In this document: positions 20,139 to 30,882 of the stretch, piece by piece
Layout: every line of letters starts with the position of its first letter
How positions within the stretch are numbered: position 1 is the stretch's first letter
Assembly (NCBI GenBank): GCA_004297935.1
Contig: SCRE01000004.1
Location: forward strand, 28,357-92,356
DNA: 64,000 nucleotides
Direction of reading: 5' to 3'
Source of the DNA: Microbacteriaceae bacterium
Lineage (GTDB): Bacteria; Actinomycetota; Actinomycetes; Actinomycetales; Microbacteriaceae
Notes under the pieces: model-generated
The model's database searches: none
Told to the model about the DNA's origin: nothing
The model's input: only the letters and a program-made list of their open reading frames with translations
Translations under genes and position numbers: made by a program

Positions 20139-20375
20139 TCAGGAGTCGGTGTCGATGACGTCGACGCGTACCCGGCGACCGTCGGCCAGCGCGGACACCA
20201 GTGTGCGGAGAGCCTTCGCGGTGCGACCGGAACGGCCGATGACCCGGCCGAGGTCCTCGGGGTTCACACGAATCTCGAGGACCTCGCCACGGGGGGAATT
20301 CTTTGCGACGACCACCACGTCGTCAGGATTGTCGACAATCCCCTTGACGAGGTGCTCGAGAGCGGGAGCGAGCAA
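20139..20375 (-). CDS. khpA: KH-domain RNA-binding protein KhpA
   Basis: DLGRVIGRSGRTAKALR; between rpsP and rimM. Confidence 0.93.
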   Translation of the reverse strand: MLAPALEHLVKGIVDNPDDVVVVAKNSPRGEVLEIRVNPEDLGRVIGRSGRTAKALRTLVSALADGRRVRVDVIDTDS

Positions 20376-20377
20376 TC

Positions 20378-20815
20378 TCAGGCCTTCTCGGTCTCGGATG
20401 CCTCGGCTGCGACGTCTTCTGCAGCCTCGGTGGGCGCCTGTTCCGCGGTCTTGGCGGCCGGCTTGTCGGCCTTCGGCTTCAAGACCGGCTTCTTCTTCTC
20501 GTCGGCGACGAAGACAGCCTTGGCTTGCTTCATCTTGACGGTGTTCGCGACCTTCTTGGAACCCTTGAAGGTGCCCCAGTCGCCGGTCAGACGCAGCAGG
20601 GCCTGCACCTGGTCGGTCGGCTGCGCGCCCACGGAAAGCCAGTACTGCGCACGCGCGGAGTCGACCTCGATGACCGAGGGCTCCTGCGTCGGGTGGTAGA
20701 TGCCGATCTCCTCGATGACGCGACCATCACGCTTGGTGCGTGAGTCGGCGACGACGATGCGGTAGTACGGTGCGCGGACCTTGCCCATGCGCTTCAGACG
20801 GATCTTGACAGCCAC
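20378..20815 (-). CDS. rpsP: 30S ribosomal protein S16
   Basis: [28 protein letters not shown]. Confidence 0.99.
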
Positions 20816-20952
20816 AATTCTCCTGTGTTGTATGAGGTGTTTGTCGAACTGACTGCCGGGGGCGTGGGGGCACACGCGGCAGGAGGTCTAGGGGGTTCCA
20901 CGCACGGTTTGATGAGAGGGTCGAACCGCGCAGAACTCAGGGGACCATTCTG
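20816..20952 (-). promoter_or_regulatory. rpsP promoter (extended -10 TGGCAGAAT) and structured 5' leader
   Basis: attctg at 20947-20952; stems gcacggtt/aaccgcgc (20902-20931) and ctgccg/cggcag (20853-20882). Confidence 0.45.
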
Positions 20953-20989
20953 CCAGACCGATCGGGAAACGGCTAATCCGGCGCGGCGC

Positions 20990-23083
20990 TCACCGAACAC
21001 TCAGGCGACGAGCGGCCGCGAGTCCCTCGCTCGTGGCTCGCACCGCATCCACCGCAGTCGCATCGCGAGCGCCGCCGACCACCTCACAGCGGATGCCTGC
21101 CTCGCGCAATTGTGCAGCCAGCGCCGTGTTCGGCTCCTGGCCGGCGCACACGATCACGGTGTTCCCCGGGATCAGTTCGGTGCCTCCATGCGTGTGCTCG
21201 ATGACGACGCCGGCCGGAGTGATCTCGCGGTAGGCGATGTCGGTCAGCATCCGCACCCCCGCCGCACGGAGCGCGCCGAGCGCGACCCAGCGTGAGGTGA
21301 TGCCGATTCCGTGGCCGAATCGGCCGTTGCGTCTCAACATCGTCACGAGGCCGCCTGCTCGCGGTGCCATCCGGATTCGCGGCCCCGCGAACGGCGGCTC
21401 GCCGTCTGCCAGAGCGCCGACGGACTCGGCCAGTTCGAACCGATCGGCGAATCCGGCGGCGCGTGCACGTCGATCGTGGGGTTCGACGAGGAATGCGGCG
21501 ACATCGACGCCGATGCCGCCGCCGCCGATGATGGCGACCGAGCCGTCCGGCACTCCATCGCGAAGGGCACGCTCGTATGACAGAACGTGCGGCAGTTCCG
21601 CGCCAGGCATGTCGATCCGGCGCGCCAGAACACCGGTCGCCACAACGACTGCGGTGAAGTCGCCGAGGAGTTCGACAGACGCCCGCGTGCCGGTTCTGAT
21701 GTCTGCACCGAGCATCGTCAGACGCGCCCGCGCGGACTCGGCCGTCCGCGCGTAGTCTTCCTTGCCGGGAACACGGGCCGCAAGCCTGAACTGCCCGCCG
21801 AGACCGTCGGCCGCTTCGAACACTGTGACGGCGTGCCCGCGCTCGGCCAGGTCGATCGCGGCCGCCAGCCCTGCCGGCCCCGCACCCACGACGGCGAATC
21901 GACGCCGACGCCGTGTTGTGCGCGCCGGAAACTGTGTTTCACGTCCGGCGCGGGGATTGACCAGGCACGACACCGGCTGAAAGACGAGTGAGCGGTCGAT
22001 GCAGGCCTGATCGCACCCGATGCAGGTGTTGACGGTGCCGAAGTCACCGCCGAGGCTGCGCGCGACGATGCGTGGATCGGCCAGGAACGGGCGCGCCAGC
22101 GCGACCGCGTCGACCGTCCCGCGCTCCAGGATGCGCTCGGCCTGACGCAGATCCGTGATCCGATTGCTCGCGATCACCGGAACACGTCGTGCACCGGCAT
22201 CGGCGATGGCCTCGGCGATTCGTTCCGCGTAGCCCAGCCATGCCCCGTGCGGCACGGATGCCTGAACCGTCGGCACCTGCGACTCGTGCCAGCCGATGCC
22301 GACGCTGAGCGCGTCTGCACCGGCGTCCACCAGCGCAGCGGCCAGGCCGCTCACTTCGTCCGGTGTGGATGAGCCGGGCATCAGGTCGTTTCCCGACATG
22401 CGCACGAGCACGGGGGTGGCCGCGGGCAGCGCCGCACGCACGGCACGCACCACGGCGAGCGCGAATCGGCGTCGGCGATCGCTGTCCCCACCCCACTCGT
22501 CGTCCCGCAGATTGGTCAGCGGCGAACAGAACTGGTTGATCAGATACCCTTCGGATGCCATGATCTCGACCGCGTCGAATCCGGCGTCGAGAGCGCGGCA
22601 AGCCGCATCCGCATAGTCCTGTACGGTCGCCGCGATCTCATCGGCGGTCAGCGCGCGCGGCACGGTGCCGCGAGCGGCACGCCAGGGCACGGCTGACGGC
22701 GCGACCGTCTGCTCGGCGCGACCGGCCGCATCCGCGAGCCCATCGAGAATCGCGTAACGGCCGGCGTGGAACAGTTGCGCTGCGATCACCCCGCCCGCAT
22801 CGTGCACGGCCTGCACGGCCCTGCTCAGTCGTTCATGCACGTCCGGCTCACCCAGAACCGCATAGTCGGGGCCGCCGCGACCGGCCGAGTTCACGGCGAG
22901 CCCGCCGGTGACGATCAGCGCCGCGCCGCCATCGACGCGTTCCCGGTAGAACGCGGCCAGACCCGCGCCGCCATCGTCCGAGACCTCGAGTCCGGTGTGC
23001 ATGCTGCCCATGACGATGCGGTGCGGCAATGCCAACGCGCCGATCGACCACGGCGTGCGCACCCGTGGCAGGAGGCCGTCCAC
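20990..23083 (-). CDS. FMN/4Fe-4S/FAD 2,4-dienoyl-CoA reductase (FadH-like; PlmM/AnsM equivalent in CHC-CoA synthesis)
   Basis: GSMHTG, MASEGYLINQF, CIGCDQAC...CLVNP iron-sulfur motif, VVGAGPAG; last gene of the chcA operon. Confidence 0.9.
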   Translation of the reverse strand: MDGLLPRVRTPWSIGALALPHRIVMGSMHTGLEVSDDGGAGLAAFYRERVDGGAALIVTGGLAVNSAGRGGPDYAVLGEPDVHERLSRAVQAVHDAGGVIAAQLFHAGRYAILDGLADAAGRAEQTVAPSAVPWRAARGTVPRALTADEIAATVQDYADAACRALDAGFDAVEIMASEGYLINQFCSPLTNLRDDEWGGDSDRRRRFALAVVRAVRAALPAATPVLVRMSGNDLMPGSSTPDEVSGLAAALVDAGADALSVGIGWHESQVPTVQASVPHGAWLGYAERIAEAIADAGARRVPVIASNRITDLRQAERILERGTVDAVALARPFLADPRIVARSLGGDFGTVNTCIGCDQACIDRSLVFQPVSCLVNPRAGRETQFPARTTRRRRRFAVVGAGPAGLAAAIDLAERGHAVTVFEAADGLGGQFRLAARVPGKEDYARTAESARARLTMLGADIRTGTRASVELLGDFTAVVVATGVLARRIDMPGAELPHVLSYERALRDGVPDGSVAIIGGGGIGVDVAAFLVEPHDRRARAAGFADRFELAESVGALADGEPPFAGPRIRMAPRAGGLVTMLRRNGRFGHGIGITSRWVALGALRAAGVRMLTDIAYREITPAGVVIEHTHGGTELIPGNTVIVCAGQEPNTALAAQLREAGIRCEVVGGARDATAVDAVRATSEGLAAARRLSVR

Positions 23084-23091
23084 GCGAGTGC

Positions 23092-23931
23092 TCAGAGCTC
23101 GGCTGACGCGCCGTAGACCGCGGCGCGCAGCTCACCGGTCGTGTCCGCCCAGAACGGCGGGGCGACGATGGTCAGCCCGCCGTCGACGGACAGCACCTGA
23201 CCTGTGATATAGCCCGCGTGCTCGGACAGCAGGAACTCGATGGCTGATGCCATATCGTCCGCCGTCCCCGGTCGGCCGAGCGGCAGTTTCTCGATCACCG
23301 ACTGCATGGGCGGGATGCCGGGGACGCGCTCATAGAAGAATTCGAGCGAGTCCGTGTCGATCAGGCCGCCGTTGACGGCGTTGACGGTGATGCCGCGCGG
23401 GCCGAACTCCGTGGCCATGTAGCGCATGTAGGTCTCTGCGGCCGCCTTGGCCGCACCGAGCGAGGCATAGGTCGGGAACGAGCGCAGCGAGCCGTAGCTG
23501 GTGACGACGACGATGCGGCCACCACCGGTCATCAGGTCGGCAGCGCGCTGGGCGCCGAGCACGAACGAGCGCACGTTCATCGCCCAGCTGCGGTCCAGGT
23601 GGTGCTGCTTCAACAGTGCGACCGGCTTGAACGCACTGGCCGCGGCGTTCGCAACGAACGCGTCGAGCCGGCCGTAGTGTGCCGCGACCGCTTCGAACAG
23701 CGCGTCGATGTCGTCCGGCTCCTCGACGTTCGCCTGAACGACTATGCCGTCCGCCCCCGCCGCGCGCACGTCCTCAAGTGTGCGCTGTGCGAGTTCGCGG
23801 TTCGCCTTGTAGTTGATCACCACGTTGGTGCCCGCTGCGGCGAGCTTGAGCGCGAGCACTCTGCCGATACCACGCGACGAGCCCGTGATCAGGGCGACGG
23901 GCGCACCGGTGCTTTCTGGGTTGGATGCCAT
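23092..23931 (-). CDS. chcA: 1-cyclohexenylcarbonyl-CoA reductase (SDR)
   Basis: TGSSRGIG, NAAASAFK, HHLDRS, SYGS, YPTY-type PTYASLGAAK, NGGLIDTDSLEFFY, IVAPPFWAD; these match my recollection of Streptomyces collinus ChcA along the whole length. Confidence 0.88.
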   Translation of the reverse strand: MASNPESTGAPVALITGSSRGIGRVLALKLAAAGTNVVINYKANRELAQRTLEDVRAAGADGIVVQANVEEPDDIDALFEAVAAHYGRLDAFVANAAASAFKPVALLKQHHLDRSWAMNVRSFVLGAQRAADLMTGGGRIVVVTSYGSLRSFPTYASLGAAKAAAETYMRYMATEFGPRGITVNAVNGGLIDTDSLEFFYERVPGIPPMQSVIEKLPLGRPGTADDMASAIEFLLSEHAGYITGQVLSVDGGLTIVAPPFWADTTGELRAAVYGASAEL

Positions 23932-23950
23932 GCTGCCGGGTCTCCTCGCG

Positions 23951-25105
23951 TCAGACGGCGCCCGCGACAACGGCGCGCGCCACGATCAATTTCTGAATCT
24001 CGTTGGTGCCCTCCTCGAAGCGCTGAGCCCGCGCGTCGCGGTAGACACGTTCGATCGCATTGCGTTTCCAGTATCCTTGCCCGCCATAGATCTGCAACGC
24101 TTTGTCGGTCACGCGCGTGAGCATGTCGACGGCGATCATCTTGGACGCGCTCGAGAGCACGCCGGCGTCGGCCGACCCGGTCGCGAAGGCGCGCCCTGCC
24201 TGCATCACCAGAGCGCGCGCCGCCGCGATGTCCGCGTAGTTCTCGGCCAGATAGAACTGGATCGCCTGTCGCTGTGACAGCGCCTTGCCGAACGTCTCAC
24301 GCCGGTTCGCGTAGTCGACGGCGAGTTCCTGCGCCCGCTCGGCGAGGCCGACACAGCTCATCGCCACGGATACCCTGCTCGGCAACAGGAATCCGCCGAG
24401 CATCACGGCCAGCCCGTCGCCCTCAGCGCCGAGGCGAGCGGAGACGGGAACCGGCGTGTTGTCGAAGTGCAGCACCGCGTGGTCGGTGCCGCGCACGCCC
24501 ATCGTCTGCGAGTCGTCGATCACCTCGGCACCGGGCAGGCCGGAATTGGGCACCAGAAGGGCGACCGTGCCATCCTGGCCGTTCGTCCCCTCCAGACGCG
24601 CTGCCAGCAGCCAGTAGTCACAGTGAACGCCGAACGTGATCAGATGCTTCTCGCCGCTGAGATAGTACGTGTCCCCGTCGCGGCGAACACTGGTGCGGAT
24701 GTCCGCCCCCGTGCCGGCCGTTGCTTCCGTCAGCGTGAACGCGACCAGCACATCGCCCGCGACGGACGGCTTGATGATCTGCTCTCGCTGCGCATCGGTG
24801 GCGAAGGGATCCATGGCGCGCCAGGTTCCGTTGACGACGTGCACAAGCATCCGGATCGATGCGTGGGAGTGCGAGAAGAGCTCCATCAGCTCGAGATAGC
24901 GGACGAAGTCGATGTCGCGCCCGCCGAGTCGCCCGGGCGCCGCAAGGCTGAGGTAGCCTCGTGCCTTCAGTTCCGCGAACAACGCGGGCGGCACCTGACC
25001 GGTCTCCTCGATGACGTTCGCGTAGTCCTCGCCGGGGCCCCGCACCCAGGCGTCGATCTCGTCTTTGAGGGCGGTGAACGTGTCGGCGTCGACTGCCGGT
25101 GTCAT
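23951..25105 (-). CDS. Acyl-CoA dehydrogenase family protein (PlmL/AnsL equivalent)
   Basis: FTLTEATAGTG, GEKHLITFG, MGVRG, RETFGKALSQRQAIQ, QIYGGQGY, FEEGTNEIQK. Confidence 0.92.
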   Translation of the reverse strand: MTPAVDADTFTALKDEIDAWVRGPGEDYANVIEETGQVPPALFAELKARGYLSLAAPGRLGGRDIDFVRYLELMELFSHSHASIRMLVHVVNGTWRAMDPFATDAQREQIIKPSVAGDVLVAFTLTEATAGTGADIRTSVRRDGDTYYLSGEKHLITFGVHCDYWLLAARLEGTNGQDGTVALLVPNSGLPGAEVIDDSQTMGVRGTDHAVLHFDNTPVPVSARLGAEGDGLAVMLGGFLLPSRVSVAMSCVGLAERAQELAVDYANRRETFGKALSQRQAIQFYLAENYADIAAARALVMQAGRAFATGSADAGVLSSASKMIAVDMLTRVTDKALQIYGGQGYWKRNAIERVYRDARAQRFEEGTNEIQKLIVARAVVAGAV

Positions 25106-28100
25106 ATCGTCTCCTTTGTCGCCGCAACCAGGGCGGCTGCCATTTCTCTGAGTATGGTCTTCTGGATCTTGCCGATCGCATTGCGGGGCAGCTCATCGAC
25201 GAGCTCGAGCCGCTCCGGCCAGTAGTACTTTGACACGCCGGCTGCGGCCAAATACTGTTGCAGCGCCTTGAAGCTCAGCGGACGATCCGTCCGCGTCGAC
25301 ACGACGAACGCGCAGGCCCGCTCCCCCAACCGCGCGTCGGGCATGGCCACGACCGCGACGTCCGCGACCAGCGGATGCTGGTACAACAGATTTTCCACTT
25401 CCACGACGGGCACTTTCTCGCCGCCGCGGTTGATGACGTCCTTGACCCGACCCGAAATGCGCAGAAACCCTTCATCGTCGACGGCGGCGAGATCGCCTGT
25501 GCGATACCACCCGTCGGTGGTGAACACGTCTGCCGTCAGGTCGGGGCGCTCGAGGTAGCCGCCGAAGATCGTCGGCGACCGCAGTTCGAAATTCCCCTCC
25601 GTTCCTGTCGGCACCGGCATCCCCGCGTCGTCCACGATGCGGATGTCGATGCCGGCCAGCGCACGCCCGTCGCTGCCCCACGCGTGCTCGGGTGCGTCCT
25701 CGGGCGAGGCCAGCGTGCCCAGACAGGTTTCCGTGGTTCCGAACGCGCCGAGCACCGTTGTGCCGAGCACCGCGGTCGCGTGCTCGGCGAGCGAGCGCGG
25801 CACGGCCGCCCCCGTGGCCACGAAGATCCGCAGCGACTCTGGCGACTGCGCCCCGGCCTCGACCTCGCGGACAAGGTCCATCAGGAACGGTGTCGCCGCT
25901 TGCACGAACGTCGCCTTTGCCTGGCCGAATCCCTGTTCGAGGGCGAGCGGCGCATCCCACACCGGCTGGATCACGGCCGCGGCGCCGAGCTGCCAGGAGA
26001 GCAGCATCCCATACAGGAATCCGGTCTGATGCGCCAGCGGCGACGGCACGAAGATCCGGTCGTCCGTGTCGAGCCCGAGGTGCGCGATCTCCATCTCCAC
26101 CGCGCGCGCAAGGGTGCCGTGCGTGTGTTGCACCCCCTTGGGCTCTCCGGTCGTGCCCGAGGTGAACAACAGCTGGCACACATCGTCTGGATGGGGCGCA
26201 CGGGACCGGATGTGCGGCAGATCGGGCGTCACCGACGCCAATGCCGCGTCGTAGTAGTGCCAGGTCCAGTCCACGGTTTCGACGATGGCGGCCGCAGAAT
26301 CGGGGATCGGTGGCAGATCGGTCGACACATCGGCGGAGTGTCTGTTCTCGGTCTGCAGCACGATCACGTGTTCGAGTGCGAGCGGTCGCGACTGCCGACG
26401 AGCCCGCACACCCACGTCCAGCAGTTCGATGGCCGGCCGGCGGTGCCGGAACAGGTTCGGCAGGAACAGCACTCGAGCGTGAGATCGTGCCAGTGTCATC
26501 GTGGTCTCACGCGGGCCGAACGCCGGCATGATCGGTGTGACGACCGCGCCCACCTGGATGATTCCCAGCGTGATGGCCACGAACTCGCGCCAGTTCGGCA
26601 GTTGCACGGCCACCGCCTCCCCGCGACGCACGCCGAGATCGAGCAGCAGCGCCGATACCTGATCCGCCTCGCGCTGCAGCGCGCTCCAACTCACGACCGC
26701 CGGCGCGTCCGGCCCGACCTCGATGACGCCGGGCTCATCCGACCGCTCCTGCGACAGCGTGAGCACATGTTCCACGGGACCGTGGACACCGAAAGCACCG
26801 TAGCCGTATCCGACGGCTCCGGACCCGGCCGCCGAACGGCGTGCAGCCTCCTGGGGCGTGACGCGGTCGGTGTCTGCGCCCGTCGCGTAGCCGGAGTCCG
26901 GATCGCTCGCGTCCGGCTGACGCGCCGAGCTGACGTCGATCTCCAGCCCGATGCCGTTCATCGCATCGAGGAATTCCGGATAGGAAACGCGGTATGCGTG
27001 CGGGTAGGTCAACGCCGAACTGCCCTCCGCGCGCGTCGCGGCGACCGCCAAGGCCATCAGCACCCGGTGATCGTTGAACGAGGACAGTGCGGCGGAACGC
27101 AGGTGTTCGACACCGGTGATCCGCAGCTCGGAGTCGCTCTGCCGCGCCGACGCACCCATCCGGTTCAATTGCAGCATCGCCGAGACACGATCGGATTCCT
27201 TCAACCGGATATGTCCGACGTTGCGCAGCGTACTGGTGCCGTCGGCGACGCCCGCCATCGCCGAGAGCACCGGCAGCAGGTCCGGAATGGGCGCGCAGTC
27301 GATATCGAGCGGGTTCAGCCGGATGCCATCGTGCCGCACCCGCACGAACCCGGTCGCCCTGTCCAGGCGCAACGGCACCCCCATCCTCGCCGCCAGGTCG
27401 AGGAATTCCGACTCCGGGTGATCTGTGTCGGCGGCCCGGATGGCGGACAGCCCGCTGAACAGCACGTCCGACGGGTGCAATGCGGTCGCCGCGACACCGA
27501 ACGCTGCCGCGCCGATGTCCGGTGGGAGTCGGTAATCGGCGGGCGTTGCCGTCTGATTGCCCGGAATGCGATAGTTGAGCCAGTCGTCATCGTGTTCCAC
27601 GACCAGGCCGAAGGTGCGCATCATCCGAATCGTCAGGTCGACATACGGCTGCTCGTTGAGTGCCCCACCGGTCACGTGCACCGTCGTGTCCGTGCGAGCG
27701 AACGGGGCGAGCAGGAGCAGCCCGCTCAGCCATTGCGAGAGTGTTCCTGCGATCTCCACGTCGCCGCCACGGGGTCGCACCGGTTGCACGGTGATCGGCG
27801 GGCATCCGTCTGTGGCCGTCAGCTCCACGCCCATTTGCTGCAGCGAGGCGAGCAGGGCGCTGATCGGCCGCCTGCGGAAATACTTCATGCCGGTGAGTGT
27901 CATCGGTCGATCGGCGAGGCTGGCGAGCCCCGTCATGAAGTACAGCGTCGTGCCGGACGACCCCACGTTGAGCAGGCCGTTCCTGCCGTTGCTGCCGTTC
28001 TCGTCGATGTCCGCAGCCCGGTACGGACCTCCCGTCACGAGGTAGTCGTCACCGACGATGCGGATGTCCGTGCCGAGCGCGCGTAAGACGCTGATCGTCC

Positions 28101-28254
28101 ATTCGACCTGCCGTGTCGCGGAGATGCCGGAGACCACGCTGGTGCCTTCGGCGAGCGAGGCGAGCACCAAGGCACGGTGTGCGTGATACTTCGACACCGG
28201 GATCTCAAGTTCCCCGGTCAGCCGGCCTTCCGTGCCATGAACGATGAGTTGCAT
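25102..28254 (-). CDS. Fusion of an EPSP-synthase-like domain and an ANL-family acyl-CoA ligase (PlmJK / AnsJ+AnsK equivalent)
   Basis: N-half SKYHAHRAL, GSSGTT, PDLLP, RLKESDR, NDHR; C-half FTSGTTGEPKG, AFGTTET, YRTGD, GRVKDVINRGGEK, GKIQK; one continuous frame. Confidence 0.92.
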   Translation of the reverse strand: MQLIVHGTEGRLTGELEIPVSKYHAHRALVLASLAEGTSVVSGISATRQVEWTISVLRALGTDIRIVGDDYLVTGGPYRAADIDENGSNGRNGLLNVGSSGTTLYFMTGLASLADRPMTLTGMKYFRRRPISALLASLQQMGVELTATDGCPPITVQPVRPRGGDVEIAGTLSQWLSGLLLLAPFARTDTTVHVTGGALNEQPYVDLTIRMMRTFGLVVEHDDDWLNYRIPGNQTATPADYRLPPDIGAAAFGVAATALHPSDVLFSGLSAIRAADTDHPESEFLDLAARMGVPLRLDRATGFVRVRHDGIRLNPLDIDCAPIPDLLPVLSAMAGVADGTSTLRNVGHIRLKESDRVSAMLQLNRMGASARQSDSELRITGVEHLRSAALSSFNDHRVLMALAVAATRAEGSSALTYPHAYRVSYPEFLDAMNGIGLEIDVSSARQPDASDPDSGYATGADTDRVTPQEAARRSAAGSGAVGYGYGAFGVHGPVEHVLTLSQERSDEPGVIEVGPDAPAVVSWSALQREADQVSALLLDLGVRRGEAVAVQLPNWREFVAITLGIIQVGAVVTPIMPAFGPRETTMTLARSHARVLFLPNLFRHRRPAIELLDVGVRARRQSRPLALEHVIVLQTENRHSADVSTDLPPIPDSAAAIVETVDWTWHYYDAALASVTPDLPHIRSRAPHPDDVCQLLFTSGTTGEPKGVQHTHGTLARAVEMEIAHLGLDTDDRIFVPSPLAHQTGFLYGMLLSWQLGAAAVIQPVWDAPLALEQGFGQAKATFVQAATPFLMDLVREVEAGAQSPESLRIFVATGAAVPRSLAEHATAVLGTTVLGAFGTTETCLGTLASPEDAPEHAWGSDGRALAGIDIRIVDDAGMPVPTGTEGNFELRSPTIFGGYLERPDLTADVFTTDGWYRTGDLAAVDDEGFLRISGRVKDVINRGGEKVPVVEVENLLYQHPLVADVAVVAMPDARLGERACAFVVSTRTDRPLSFKALQQYLAAAGVSKYYWPERLELVDELPRNAIGKIQKTILREMAAALVAATKETI

Positions 28255-28287
28255 CAGATGCACCGTTTCTTCCGGTCGCCGTGGCAC

Positions 28288-28331
28288 CTGCCTGCATGCA
28301 GGCAGTGTGGCAACCTCCGTCGAGTTGTCAA
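28288..28331 (-). promoter_or_regulatory. Candidate sigma70-type promoter of the CHC operon with an 18-bp perfect palindrome at the predicted start site
   Basis: TTGACA (28331-28326), 16-nt spacer, CACACT; palindrome ctgcctgcatgcaggcag at 28288-28305. Confidence 0.55.
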
Positions 28332-28505
28332 ACACCCGAGAACTTACTCGCACCACGCTGTCGCGGCAAACCCGGCCGTAACGTGTTCGAGGTTCGCGTG
28401 TTTTCGCGCGCCGGCAGCGCTGGACCGGTAAAATCACCGCGTCGGTTCGGCAGAATCATCAGCCCGGCAAAGCCCAACCACATGAATTCAGTTTAGGGTG
28501 GAGCC

Positions 28506-29210
28506 ATGCTTCGCCGCCTCGGGCACATCCCGATCGTCCGCATCGTCGCGGTGGTACTGGCCGTCGGCACTGTGACGGCCGCGTTGGTCACGGCGGCGAC
28601 CGCTGTGGCTGCCCAACCGCATATCGTTCCGCAGACGACCAAAGGCTCGCCGAAGGGCCCGCTCGTGGTCACCATCGGCGATTCGATCATGGCGGGCCAT
28701 GGGCTCACCCCAGCAGAGGCGTGGCCCGCGCTGCTGGCAGTAGCCGACGAATGGCGCGTCACCAACTTGGCCAGCGACGGTTCCGGATTCGTCGCAATCG
28801 GCGACGAACGCGATACGTTCGCCAACCAGGTGAGTGCCGCGATCGCTCTGCACCCCGACGTGATCATCGTCGAGGGCAGTAGCAATGATGTCGGTGTCTC
28901 GAACACCGTGCTCGAGGCCGCGACCGACTCGACCATCGCGCACCTGCGGCAGGCACTGCCGAAGGCGACACTGATCGGCCTCAGTGCCGTGTGGGGCGAT
29001 ACAGCACCGCCGAGTCAACTGGCCGACATCGATGACCAAGTCGACAGCGCCGTGACCGGCAACGGCGGGTACTACCTCAACGTCGGCCAGCCGCTTGGTG
29101 GGCATGCTGACCTGATGCAGAGTGACGATGTGCACCCGACGGCATCCGGGCAACGCACGCTCGCTCAGGCGGTCAGCGAAGCACTGACCGCGTCTGCCAT
29201 TCGATTCTGA
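28506..29210 (+). CDS. Exported SGNH/GDSL hydrolase
   Basis: Signal peptide; blocks GDS, GSG, GSSND, DDVHP; TAGGGT -10 hexamer 6 nt before the ATG. Confidence 0.88.
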   Translation: MLRRLGHIPIVRIVAVVLAVGTVTAALVTAATAVAAQPHIVPQTTKGSPKGPLVVTIGDSIMAGHGLTPAEAWPALLAVADEWRVTNLASDGSGFVAIGDERDTFANQVSAAIALHPDVIIVEGSSNDVGVSNTVLEAATDSTIAHLRQALPKATLIGLSAVWGDTAPPSQLADIDDQVDSAVTGNGGYYLNVGQPLGGHADLMQSDDVHPTASGQRTLAQAVSEALTASAIRF

Positions 29211-29238
29211 GCACGATGTTGAACATGGACGGCCCCGA

Positions 29239-30882
29239 TCAGCGCCCGAGGTACTTCTGCAGGGTCGCGAGTTCTTCCTCGGTCGGAGCATTCGTCTTGC
29301 CCGCAGCCCTGCTGCCGGCCAGGCCGAAGCCCGACCCGCCACCGATAGCCGTACCCGTGGGTACGGCACCGGCCGCCAGTGCGGCGTTCTCCGCCGCACG
29401 CTTGGCCGGGTTCCCCGAACGAGAACCTCTCCTCTTCTGCTGCTTGGCCTTGCCGACGTAGCCGGCGCCCGGAATCGGGCCCATCCCGGGCACATTCGGC
29501 ACGCCACCCTTCGCCACGGTCTTCATCATCTTCGCCGCCTGCTCGAAGCGGGTCACGAGTTGATTCACGTCGGTGACCGTCCTGCCGGAACCGCGGGCGA
29601 TGCGCACACGACGTGACCCGTTCAGCAATCTCGGGTTGGCCCGCTCCGCTTTCGTCATGGACTGGATGATCGCCTCGGTGCGCACGATCTCCTTCTCGTC
29701 GAAGTTGTCGAGCTGCTGCTTCATGGCGCTGGCGCCGGGGAGCATGCCCATCATCTTCTTGATCGAGCCCATGTTGCGCAGCTGCTGCATCTGCTTGAGG
29801 AAGTCATCGAGCGTGAACGTGTCCGTCGCGAACTTCTCCGCGACCTTGCGGGCTTCTTCCTCGTCGAACGCTTCCTGCGCCTGCTCGATCAGGGTGAGCA
29901 CGTCGCCGAGGTCGAGGATGCGGCCGGCCATGCGATCCGGGTAGAACGGCTCGAAGTCGTCCAGACCCTCGCCCGTGGAGGCGAAGATGATCGGCCGACC
30001 GGTGACGGATGCGACGGACAGTGCCGCCCCACCGCGCGCGTCGCCGTCGAGCTTGGAGAGCACGACACCGGTGAAGTCCACGCCGTCCTGGAACGCCTTG
30101 GCCGTCGCGACGGCATCCTGACCGATCATCGCGTCGATGACGAACAGCACCTCGTCCGGGTCTGTCGCCTTGCGTATGTCGGCAGCCTGCTTCATCAGTT
30201 CGGCGTCAACGCCGAGTCGCCCGGCCGTGTCGATGATGACGGTGTCGTACTGCTGCCGTTCCGCCTGCTTGACCGCGTCCTTCGCGACCCGCACCGGGTT
30301 GCCCACGCCGTTGCCGGGCTGCGCTGTCTGGGGCGCCGCCGCCCCTGCGGCGCCCTCCCCGGAAATGCCGTACCCGCCGCTGTTTCCGGGGTGTGGTGCG
30401 AACACGGGCACGCCGGCCTGCTCGCCGACGATCTGCAGCTGGGTGACCGCGTTCGGACGCTGCAGGTCGGCGGCGACGAGCATCGGCGTGTGTCCGCCTT
30501 TGACGAGCCACTTCGCGAGCTTGCCGGCGAGGGTGGTCTTTCCCGCACCCTGCAGGCCGGCGAGCATGATCACGGTCGGCGGCTTCTTCGCGAACCGCAA
30601 TTGACGCTGCTGTCCGCCGAGGATGCCGACAAGCTCCTCGTTGACGATCTGCACGACCTGTTGCGCCGGATTCAGCGCCTTGTTGACCTCGTCGCCGAGC
30701 GCCCGCTCCCGCACCGAGGCCGTGAACTGCTTGACCACGGGCAGAGCGACGTCCGCATCGAGCAGGGCGCGACGGATTTCGCGGACCGTGCCGTCGACAT
30801 CCGCAGCGGACAGTCTGCCCTTGGTGCGGAGGTTCTTGAAGGTGTCTGTGAGCCGTTCAGAAAGGGTGCCGAAAGTTGCCAT
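29239..30882 (-). CDS. ffh: Signal recognition particle protein Ffh
   Basis: GLQGAGKTT, DTAGR, SKLDGDARGG, M domain; carries a 24-aa insert in the G domain. Confidence 0.98.
   Translation of the reverse strand: MATFGTLSERLTDTFKNLRTKGRLSAADVDGTVREIRRALLDADVALPVVKQFTASVRERALGDEVNKALNPAQQVVQIVNEELVGILGGQQRQLRFAKKPPTVIMLAGLQGAGKTTLAGKLAKWLVKGGHTPMLVAADLQRPNAVTQLQIVGEQAGVPVFAPHPGNSGGYGISGEGAAGAAAPQTAQPGNGVGNPVRVAKDAVKQAERQQYDTVIIDTAGRLGVDAELMKQAADIRKATDPDEVLFVIDAMIGQDAVATAKAFQDGVDFTGVVLSKLDGDARGGAALSVASVTGRPIIFASTGEGLDDFEPFYPDRMAGRILDLGDVLTLIEQAQEAFDEEEARKVAEKFATDTFTLDDFLKQMQQLRNMGSIKKMMGMLPGASAMKQQLDNFDEKEIVRTEAIIQSMTKAERANPRLLNGSRRVRIARGSGRTVTDVNQLVTRFEQAAKMMKTVAKGGVPNVPGMGPIPGAGYVGKAKQQKRRGSRSGNPAKRAAENAALAAGAVPTGTAIGGGSGFGLAGSRAAGKTNAPTEEELATLQKYLGR

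Follow-up and report, generated by a model that had tools for sequence, protein, structure and literature searches.

The best described relatives of the gene considered here are found in the Streptomyces cassettes for cyclohexanecarbonyl-CoA (CHC-CoA). In the ansatrienin cluster, AnsJ and AnsK are encoded by two separate genes. At the chemical level, the study of Skyrud et al. 2020 reportedly deals, according to its title, with a 'shikimoyl-CoA synthetase' that forms a thioester and with an 'FAD-dependent dehydratase' that carries out the dehydration. A five-gene CHC-CoA cassette is attributed to the ansatrienin cluster of Streptomyces collinus (Cropp et al. 2000, cited in PMC10295569), and in the phoslactomycin/lactomycin clusters plmJK is tabulated as a single gene ahead of plmL, chcA and plmM (PMC5852498 Table 2). 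Here, a gene of the fused type, termed JK, is analysed in a 64,000-nucleotide stretch of DNA (the window) from a Microbacteriaceae bacterium (contig SCRE01000004.1). It encodes an AroA-like domain (J), with the fold of 5-enolpyruvylshikimate-3-phosphate synthase (EPSPS), joined to a CoA ligase (K) of the acyl-CoA synthetase, non-ribosomal peptide synthetase adenylation domain and luciferase (ANL) superfamily. JK is very probably a PlmJK-type two-domain protein that starts the conversion of shikimate to CHC-CoA destined for lipids, with a J domain that is not an EPSP synthase.

Gene content and order match plmJK-plmL-chcA-plmM and, therefore, the fusion is of an already described kind. Like PlmJK (= PnP1, LmP1; Streptomyces), JK joins AnsJ-type and AnsK-type parts in one gene, and the genes behind it come in the same sequence: an acyl-CoA dehydrogenase (ACAD) homologue, a cyclohexenylcarbonyl-CoA reductase of the short-chain dehydrogenase/reductase (SDR) type and an NADH:FMN oxidoreductase. 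As with AnsJ and AnsK, an EPSPS homologue and a CoA ligase head the CHC-CoA cassette. J homologues found in Streptomyces (P0175, P0202 and P0218) are 55-56% identical and share the signature residues described below. The locus differs from the plm clusters in its long, low-complexity JK linker, in having no polyketide synthase (PKS) beside the operon or detectable in the source genome, and in its position between ffh and rpsP on the core chromosome.

Architecture of the fusion gene and its operon

The fusion, its parts and the genes that follow it are these:

25102..28254, minus strand: JK fusion gene (1050 aa), AnsJ/PlmJ-type AroA-like domain, linker and ANL CoA ligase (PlmJK type); from the open reading frame (ORF), translation and Pfam
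26932..28254, minus strand: J domain, residues 1-441, EPSPS fold; from residue tables against E. coli AroA and an AlphaFold2 model
26740..26931, minus strand: low-complexity inter-domain linker, residues ~442-505; predicted local distance difference test (pLDDT) score <50 over residues 444-490 of the full-length model
25102..26739, minus strand: K domain, residues ~506-1050, complete ANL adenylating CoA ligase, presumed shikimate:CoA ligase; from Pfam and motifs
23951..25105, minus strand: acyl-CoA dehydrogenase-fold gene (PlmL/AnsL position); Pfam Acyl-CoA_dh_N/M/1
23092..23970, minus strand: SDR of the enoyl-reductase type (ChcA position); Pfam adh_short_C2, 200.6 bits
20990..23083, minus strand: Old-yellow-enzyme plus Pyr_redox_2 flavoprotein of 2,4-dienoyl-CoA reductase architecture (PlmM/AnsM position); Pfam Oxidored_FMN and Pyr_redox_2

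The ORF is open over 25102..28437 on the minus strand, and the ATG at 28254 was chosen as the start because homologues begin at the same MxLxVxGT, which yields 1050 aa. The single frame of roughly this length reported in the initial annotation, together with its coordinates, was right, the gene lying on the minus strand, and all the motifs listed there (SKYHAHR, GSSGTTLY, PPDIGA, IPDLL, RLKESDR, NDHR and the linker QPDASDPDSGYATGADTD) are present in the translation. Pfam places PF00275 (EPSP_synthase) on residues 10-432 (E 1.4e-75, 255 bits), PF00501 (AMP-binding) on residues 518-901 (E 1.5e-67) and PF13193 (AMP-binding_C) on residues 952-1029, and the same three domains occur in at least 120 full-length homologues among the matches listed. 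Across 34 fused homologues the linker measures 38-99 aa and its composition is unconserved.

The ligase half is complete, as had been proposed: the A3 (698 TSGTTGEPK), A5 (836 GAFGTTE), A7 (917 YRTGD) and A8 hinge (935 GRVKDVINRGG) core motifs were all found, together with the A10 lysine, K1029, which is invariant in 34 homologues. Among solved structures, FadD13 and aryl-acid adenylases come closest to it. The best NCBIfam match for residues 506-1037 is cyclohexanecarboxylate-CoA ligase TIGR03208 (430.7 bits, under the 792.3 cut-off). The K domain resembles the AliA-type enzymes of that family, its top-scoring named family, in being an ANL ligase presumed to act on a six-membered-ring acid, but it scores far under the cut-off and partners an AroA-like domain in biosynthesis rather than standing in a degradation operon.

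JK is the first gene of a four-gene operon that continues with the ACAD gene, the ChcA-type SDR and the dienoyl-CoA reductase, so that the ligase-fused domain does head an operon of the CHC-CoA type. The start of the ACAD gene overlaps the JK stop by 4 bases. The NCBIfam name obtained for the ACAD gene is cyclohexane-1-carbonyl-CoA dehydrogenase, at 168 bits against a cut-off of 650, and the best NCBIfam match of the SDR, a FabL-type enoyl reductase, is also under its cut-off.

Active-site residues and phylogeny of the AroA-like domain

Modelling of the J domain by AlphaFold2 gave a confident structure (pLDDT 92.9, predicted template modelling score (pTM) 0.92) whose top Foldseek matches are closed E. 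coli EPSPS structures with bound shikimate-3-phosphate (S3P), at TM 0.84-0.88. The comparison with E. coli EPSPS thus bears out the AroA-like assignment of the initial annotation, the two-lobed fold being the same. In common with E. coli AroA (PDB 1G6S; TIGR01356), J has the fold and the phosphoenolpyruvate (PEP)-site and catalytic residues, but it carries clade-wide substitutions, is an extra copy beside a real aroA and is fused to a ligase. At the sequence level it shares 29% identity with E. coli AroA and 31% with the AroA of its own genome, and it passes the aroA equivalog model TIGR01356 marginally (299.9 bits against a cut-off of 287.25). A repurposed, non-housekeeping paralogue of the AnsJ/PlmJ kind had been proposed, on the understanding that the genome holds another aroA. 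A canonical aroA (TIGR01356, 369.6 bits) indeed lies on another contig, and murA elsewhere too. With this separate canonical gene present, J is not the shikimate-pathway enzyme of the genome. At least three PF00275 genes were likewise counted in each of five other cassette-bearing genomes.

Residue tables were built from 135 representatives at 50% identity from a large protein library, with the E. coli ligand-site positions tabulated. The J clade is marked, in E. coli numbering, by S23Y, R100Y, deletion of S169 and S197E, which in JK correspond to Y23, Y105 (R100 position), a one-residue gap at S169 and E201 (S197 position), accompanied by W175. The counts are as follows:

S23: found in 91/100 canonical EPSPS; Y in 12/12 J-clade members with the position present
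R100: found in 100/100 canonical EPSPS; in 0/13 of the J clade (mostly Y or Q)
S169: found in 100/100 canonical EPSPS; deleted in 13/13 of the J clade
S197: found in 100/100 canonical EPSPS; E in 13/13 of the J clade
Position 172: F in 76 and Y in 21 canonical EPSPS (n=100); W in 13/13 of the J clade

The same signature recurs in 20 further homologues, fused as well as split, and N94S and F172W are clade-wide in J domains too. Judged by R100, S169 and S197, J falls outside EPSPS, and the lost signature positions are all on the S3P-binding lobe. The residues retained, in E. coli numbering, are K22, R27, G96, R124, S170, Q171, Y200, D313, K340, E341, R344, H385 and R386 (in JK: K22, R27, R129, S173/Q174, Y204, D325, K352/E353/R356 and H396/R397), and those of the PEP site and of catalysis do not vary in alignments of 30-34 homologues reaching as low as 42-53% identity. 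The altered motifs pointed out initially are real, but one of them, the replacement of EGDxSS by PPDIGA, is not diagnostic, as P stands at position 240 in 34% of canonical EPSPS. The change at K411 was also considered as a sign of repurposing and rejected, given that V or I occupies this position in 29% of canonical EPSPS representatives.

A FastTree phylogeny was calculated on 75 rows, comprising the 13 clade members, 22 rows of a group with E at position 197 and the first 40 canonical rows; the other 60 canonical rows, P0243, P0282, P0316 and fragments <380 aa were omitted. The J clade is monophyletic in this tree, with an SH-like support of 97. A second EPSPS-like clade ('E197') is monophyletic as well (SH-like 98) and consists of Clostridiales and Fibrobacter metagenome-assembled genomes (MAGs), with 22 representatives in P0279-P0387, e.g. 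P0303 and P0373. Its members have E at 197 and a GNSGTT(L/T)Y loop; S169 is replaced by T or by some other residue, and R100 frequently by Y, N or F, whereas S23 is retained and there is no deletion. They may be either the housekeeping AroA of these organisms or another repurposed paralogue.

Distribution and genomic site of the operon

Eighty loci were fetched from species genomes of Actinomycetota, Eremiobacterota (Cybelea) and Steroidobacteraceae, and also of Streptosporangiaceae, Acidothermus and Acidimicrobiaceae. The J-K-L-ChcA-M order holds in the complete loci, on every contig of sufficient length. Of 79 loci, 73 have J and K in a single frame and the other six have them split, the fusion being the dominant form across three phyla. 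The closest named homologue among the matches listed is that of Rathayibacter soli (P0003), with 91% identity. Fused full-length homologues are present in Curtobacterium (including C. pusillum and C. flaccumfaciens), Subtercola, Frondihabitans, Gryllotalpicola and Humibacter, as well as in Rothia/Kocuria, Propionibacterium and Acidipropionibacterium, and a split J was found in Herbiconiux. Within the Microbacteriaceae, the operon occurs in 30 of 200 sampled genomes and in 17 of 101 genera, including that of the source genome. In a 400-genome sample of the phylum plus the source genome (401 in total), J-like and ACAD-like genes were found in exactly the same four genomes and in the source genome, ~3 kb apart. 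In two complete genomes, Curtobacterium flaccumfaciens Sample7_18 (L099) and Frondihabitans sucicola (L047), the J and K matches are partial or out of frame, and neither the ACAD nor the SDR gene is matched in full in L099; these broken matches reflect either operon decay or assembly frameshifts.

The flanks of the operon are housekeeping genes, with ftsY, ffh and a divergent GDSL hydrolase upstream and rpsP, khpA, rimM and trmD downstream. The operon sits within an otherwise universal ffh-rpsP-khpA-rimM-trmD string (window 20139-30882; loci L028-L070). At 41 Microbacteriaceae loci at least one of ffh, rpsP, rimM and trmD lies beside the operon, and at most of them, as in the window, the operon is bounded by ffh and, at its opposite end, by rpsP; the same flanks were seen in Curtobacterium, Humibacter, Frondihabitans, Lacisediminihabitans and others. 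None of these flank genes was found at the four Subtercola loci.

Two further features lie upstream of JK:

28255..28505, minus strand: upstream intergenic region, shared with the divergent GDSL-hydrolase gene; from sequence
28506..29210, plus strand: GDSL/SGNH hydrolase, secreted-looking; PF13472, E 1.5e-16

The intergenic region contains a TTGACA hexamer (~28332-28327) followed by a perfect 18-nt palindrome, CTGCCTGCATGCAGGCAG (~28306-28289), and this block is conserved in two close relatives. To judge from its sequence, the block may combine a promoter and the operator of a repressor; a promoter scan of the upstream region reported no full consensus site, and no regulator gene adjoins the block. 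The GDSL hydrolase gene stands between ffh and the operon, in divergent orientation, and the nearest MAG (L023) has a copy with 85% identity at the corresponding site. A link of this hydrolase to cyclohexyl lipids may exist.

Pathway, role of the J domain and meaning of the family

In the pathway that we propose, the ANL half would use ATP and CoA to convert shikimate, the ring acid, into its thioester. Alternating dehydrations and reductions by the ACAD-fold flavoprotein, the ChcA-type SDR and the dienoyl-CoA reductase would then strip the three hydroxyls to give CHC-CoA, and FabH would take CHC-CoA as primer for omega-cyclohexyl fatty acids. The FAD-dependent dehydratase named by Skyrud et al. 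would, we infer, be the ACAD homologue next to JK. Concerning the fate of the product, the source genome, 98.5% complete, gave no match to the type I PKS marker KAsynt_C_assoc; FabF-type ketosynthases are represented by one full-length match, ketoacyl-synt matched twice more, weakly and partially, and ACP_syn_III_C (FabH-type) matched three times, once weakly. One FabH-type match is located on the contig of the operon (C27, L017), ~17.5 kb past the window end and not adjoining the operon, and contig C4 carries the best FabH/FabF pair. For Curtobacterium pusillum and Propionibacterium cyclohexanicum the literature records omega-cyclohexyl fatty acids (PMC5023266), and for Herbiconiux it states that they 'may be present' (PMC10011130). 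A role of CHC-CoA as a fatty-acid primer is likely because the PKS marker is lacking, FabH is present and taxa with omega-cyclohexyl lipids carry the fused or split gene; by this analogy, CHC-CoA most likely goes into omega-cyclohexyl membrane fatty acids.

With regard to the J domain, we tentatively suggest that its ligand is the shikimate ring without phosphate, or the thioester of that ring, and that, with the tethered ligase, it captures or hands over substrate otherwise bound for aromatic amino acids; it may keep some chemistry at the conserved PEP-type subsite. The deletion of S169, the S197E change and the loss of R100 remove positive or hydrogen-bond contacts and add negative charge, which argues for a ligand less anionic than S3P. 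Shikimate or its thioester as ligand would fit a pathway whose published title speaks of a 'shikimoyl-CoA synthetase' and an 'FAD-dependent dehydratase'. The retention of the fusion in 73/79 loci keeps channelling plausible, and the predicted disorder of the unconserved linker, with no rigid interface in the model, fits tethering rather than a rigid channel.

Several points weigh against this reading of JK. The argument from the S3P lobe depends on the contacts of S169 and S197 with an anionic group of S3P in E. coli EPSPS. The likeness to PlmJK and to AnsJ-AnsK is one of architecture and gene order. The invariance of the PEP-side residues across phyla and the constant presence of J are not explained by passive binding. 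Both domains are confident in the full-length AlphaFold model, which defines no J-K interface (pTM 0.52, linker pLDDT <50). Finally, the main fatty acid of Rathayibacter soli SW19T is recorded as summed feature 9 (C16:0 10-methyl and/or iso-C17:1 w9c), at 50.8%, and no cyclohexyl acid is named in that place (PMC11294650). Such a proportion of summed feature 9 is odd for a member of the Microbacteriaceae and, speculatively, the peak may be a misnamed omega-cyclohexyl acid; a literature search on summed feature 9 masking cyclohexyl-C17:0 found nothing.

A close rival to substrate capture is that J is an active enzyme whose PEP-type subsite serves an as yet undescribed conversion of shikimate or shikimoyl-CoA, e.g. 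an enolpyruvyl or phosphate-dependent preparation or protection of the ring; the cell would then depend on J even if a minimal set of enzymes can do without it in vitro. The invariance of the equivalents of K22, R124, D313, K340, E341, R344, H385 and R386 in 30-34 homologues speaks for this possibility, as do the closed, ligand-bound EPSPS conformation of the J model and the retention of J in every sampled genome that has the ACAD gene. Known pathway chemistry, however, demands no such reaction, the title of Skyrud et al. naming a ligase and a flavin dehydratase only, and R100, invariant in EPSPS, is gone; undescribed catalysis is thus possible and somewhat doubtful. The same modest likelihood attaches to its broader form, in which such J chemistry, on an unphosphorylated shikimate ring or on shikimoyl-CoA, would be what allows living cells to draw shikimate off into cyclohexyl lipids as well as polyketide starters, and J, with the E197 clade, would belong to a wider set of repurposed EPSPS proteins.

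The initial annotation itself had J perform the first 1,4-elimination or dehydration on shikimate or S3P and channel the product to the ligase. General acid/base residues are indeed kept, the ligase fusion is strongly conserved and there is a formal likeness between the opening step of the pathway and the elimination that comes after EPSPS on the way to chorismate. Nevertheless, as far as the title of Skyrud et al. goes, activation belongs to a ligase acting on shikimate itself and dehydration to the FAD-dependent flavoenzyme, and the deleted S169 and the glutamate at 197 disfavour a phosphorylated substrate, S3P in particular, which makes the proposal improbable. An ordinary second EPSP synthase, either redundant or dedicated to the pathway, is more improbable still: its TIGR01356 score lies just above the cut-off and all homologues are publicly annotated as 3-phosphoshikimate 1-carboxyvinyltransferase, but three residues found in 100/100 canonical enzymes are all changed, the genome has its high-scoring canonical aroA and the domain occurs only inside CHC-type operons. 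A catabolic operon for uptake or degradation of cyclohexanecarboxylate or another alicyclic acid via CoA esters, although suggested by the top NCBIfam names (cyclohexanecarboxylate-CoA ligase and cyclohexane-1-carbonyl-CoA dehydrogenase), was rejected as hardly credible, since these scores are far under their cut-offs (430.7 against 792 and 168 against 650), the operon has no gene for a hydratase, a hydroxyacyl-CoA dehydrogenase or a ring-opening hydrolase, the AroA-like domain points to shikimate and the cassette is the same as the biosynthetic plmJK-L-chcA-M set.

Under the reading of JK as a PlmJK-type starter of CHC-CoA synthesis, the fusion itself is not new; what is added is the four-residue signature, the dominance of the fusion across three phyla and the conserved ffh-rpsP site in Microbacteriaceae. 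The public label '3-phosphoshikimate 1-carboxyvinyltransferase' is almost certainly wrong for this clade, and Y23, a residue other than R at position 100, the missing S169 and E197 separate it cleanly from real AroA, a distinction that could fix thousands of records. The J domain, whose catalytic residues are invariant and which is never lost in the genomes sampled, is nonetheless needed by no accepted pathway step, and the soluble-looking, naturally fused JK from a fast-growing actinobacterium is a reasonable protein with which to settle its role. The operon can also serve directly as a genetic marker for omega-cyclohexyl fatty acids, whose patchy occurrence in the Microbacteriaceae is of chemotaxonomic use.

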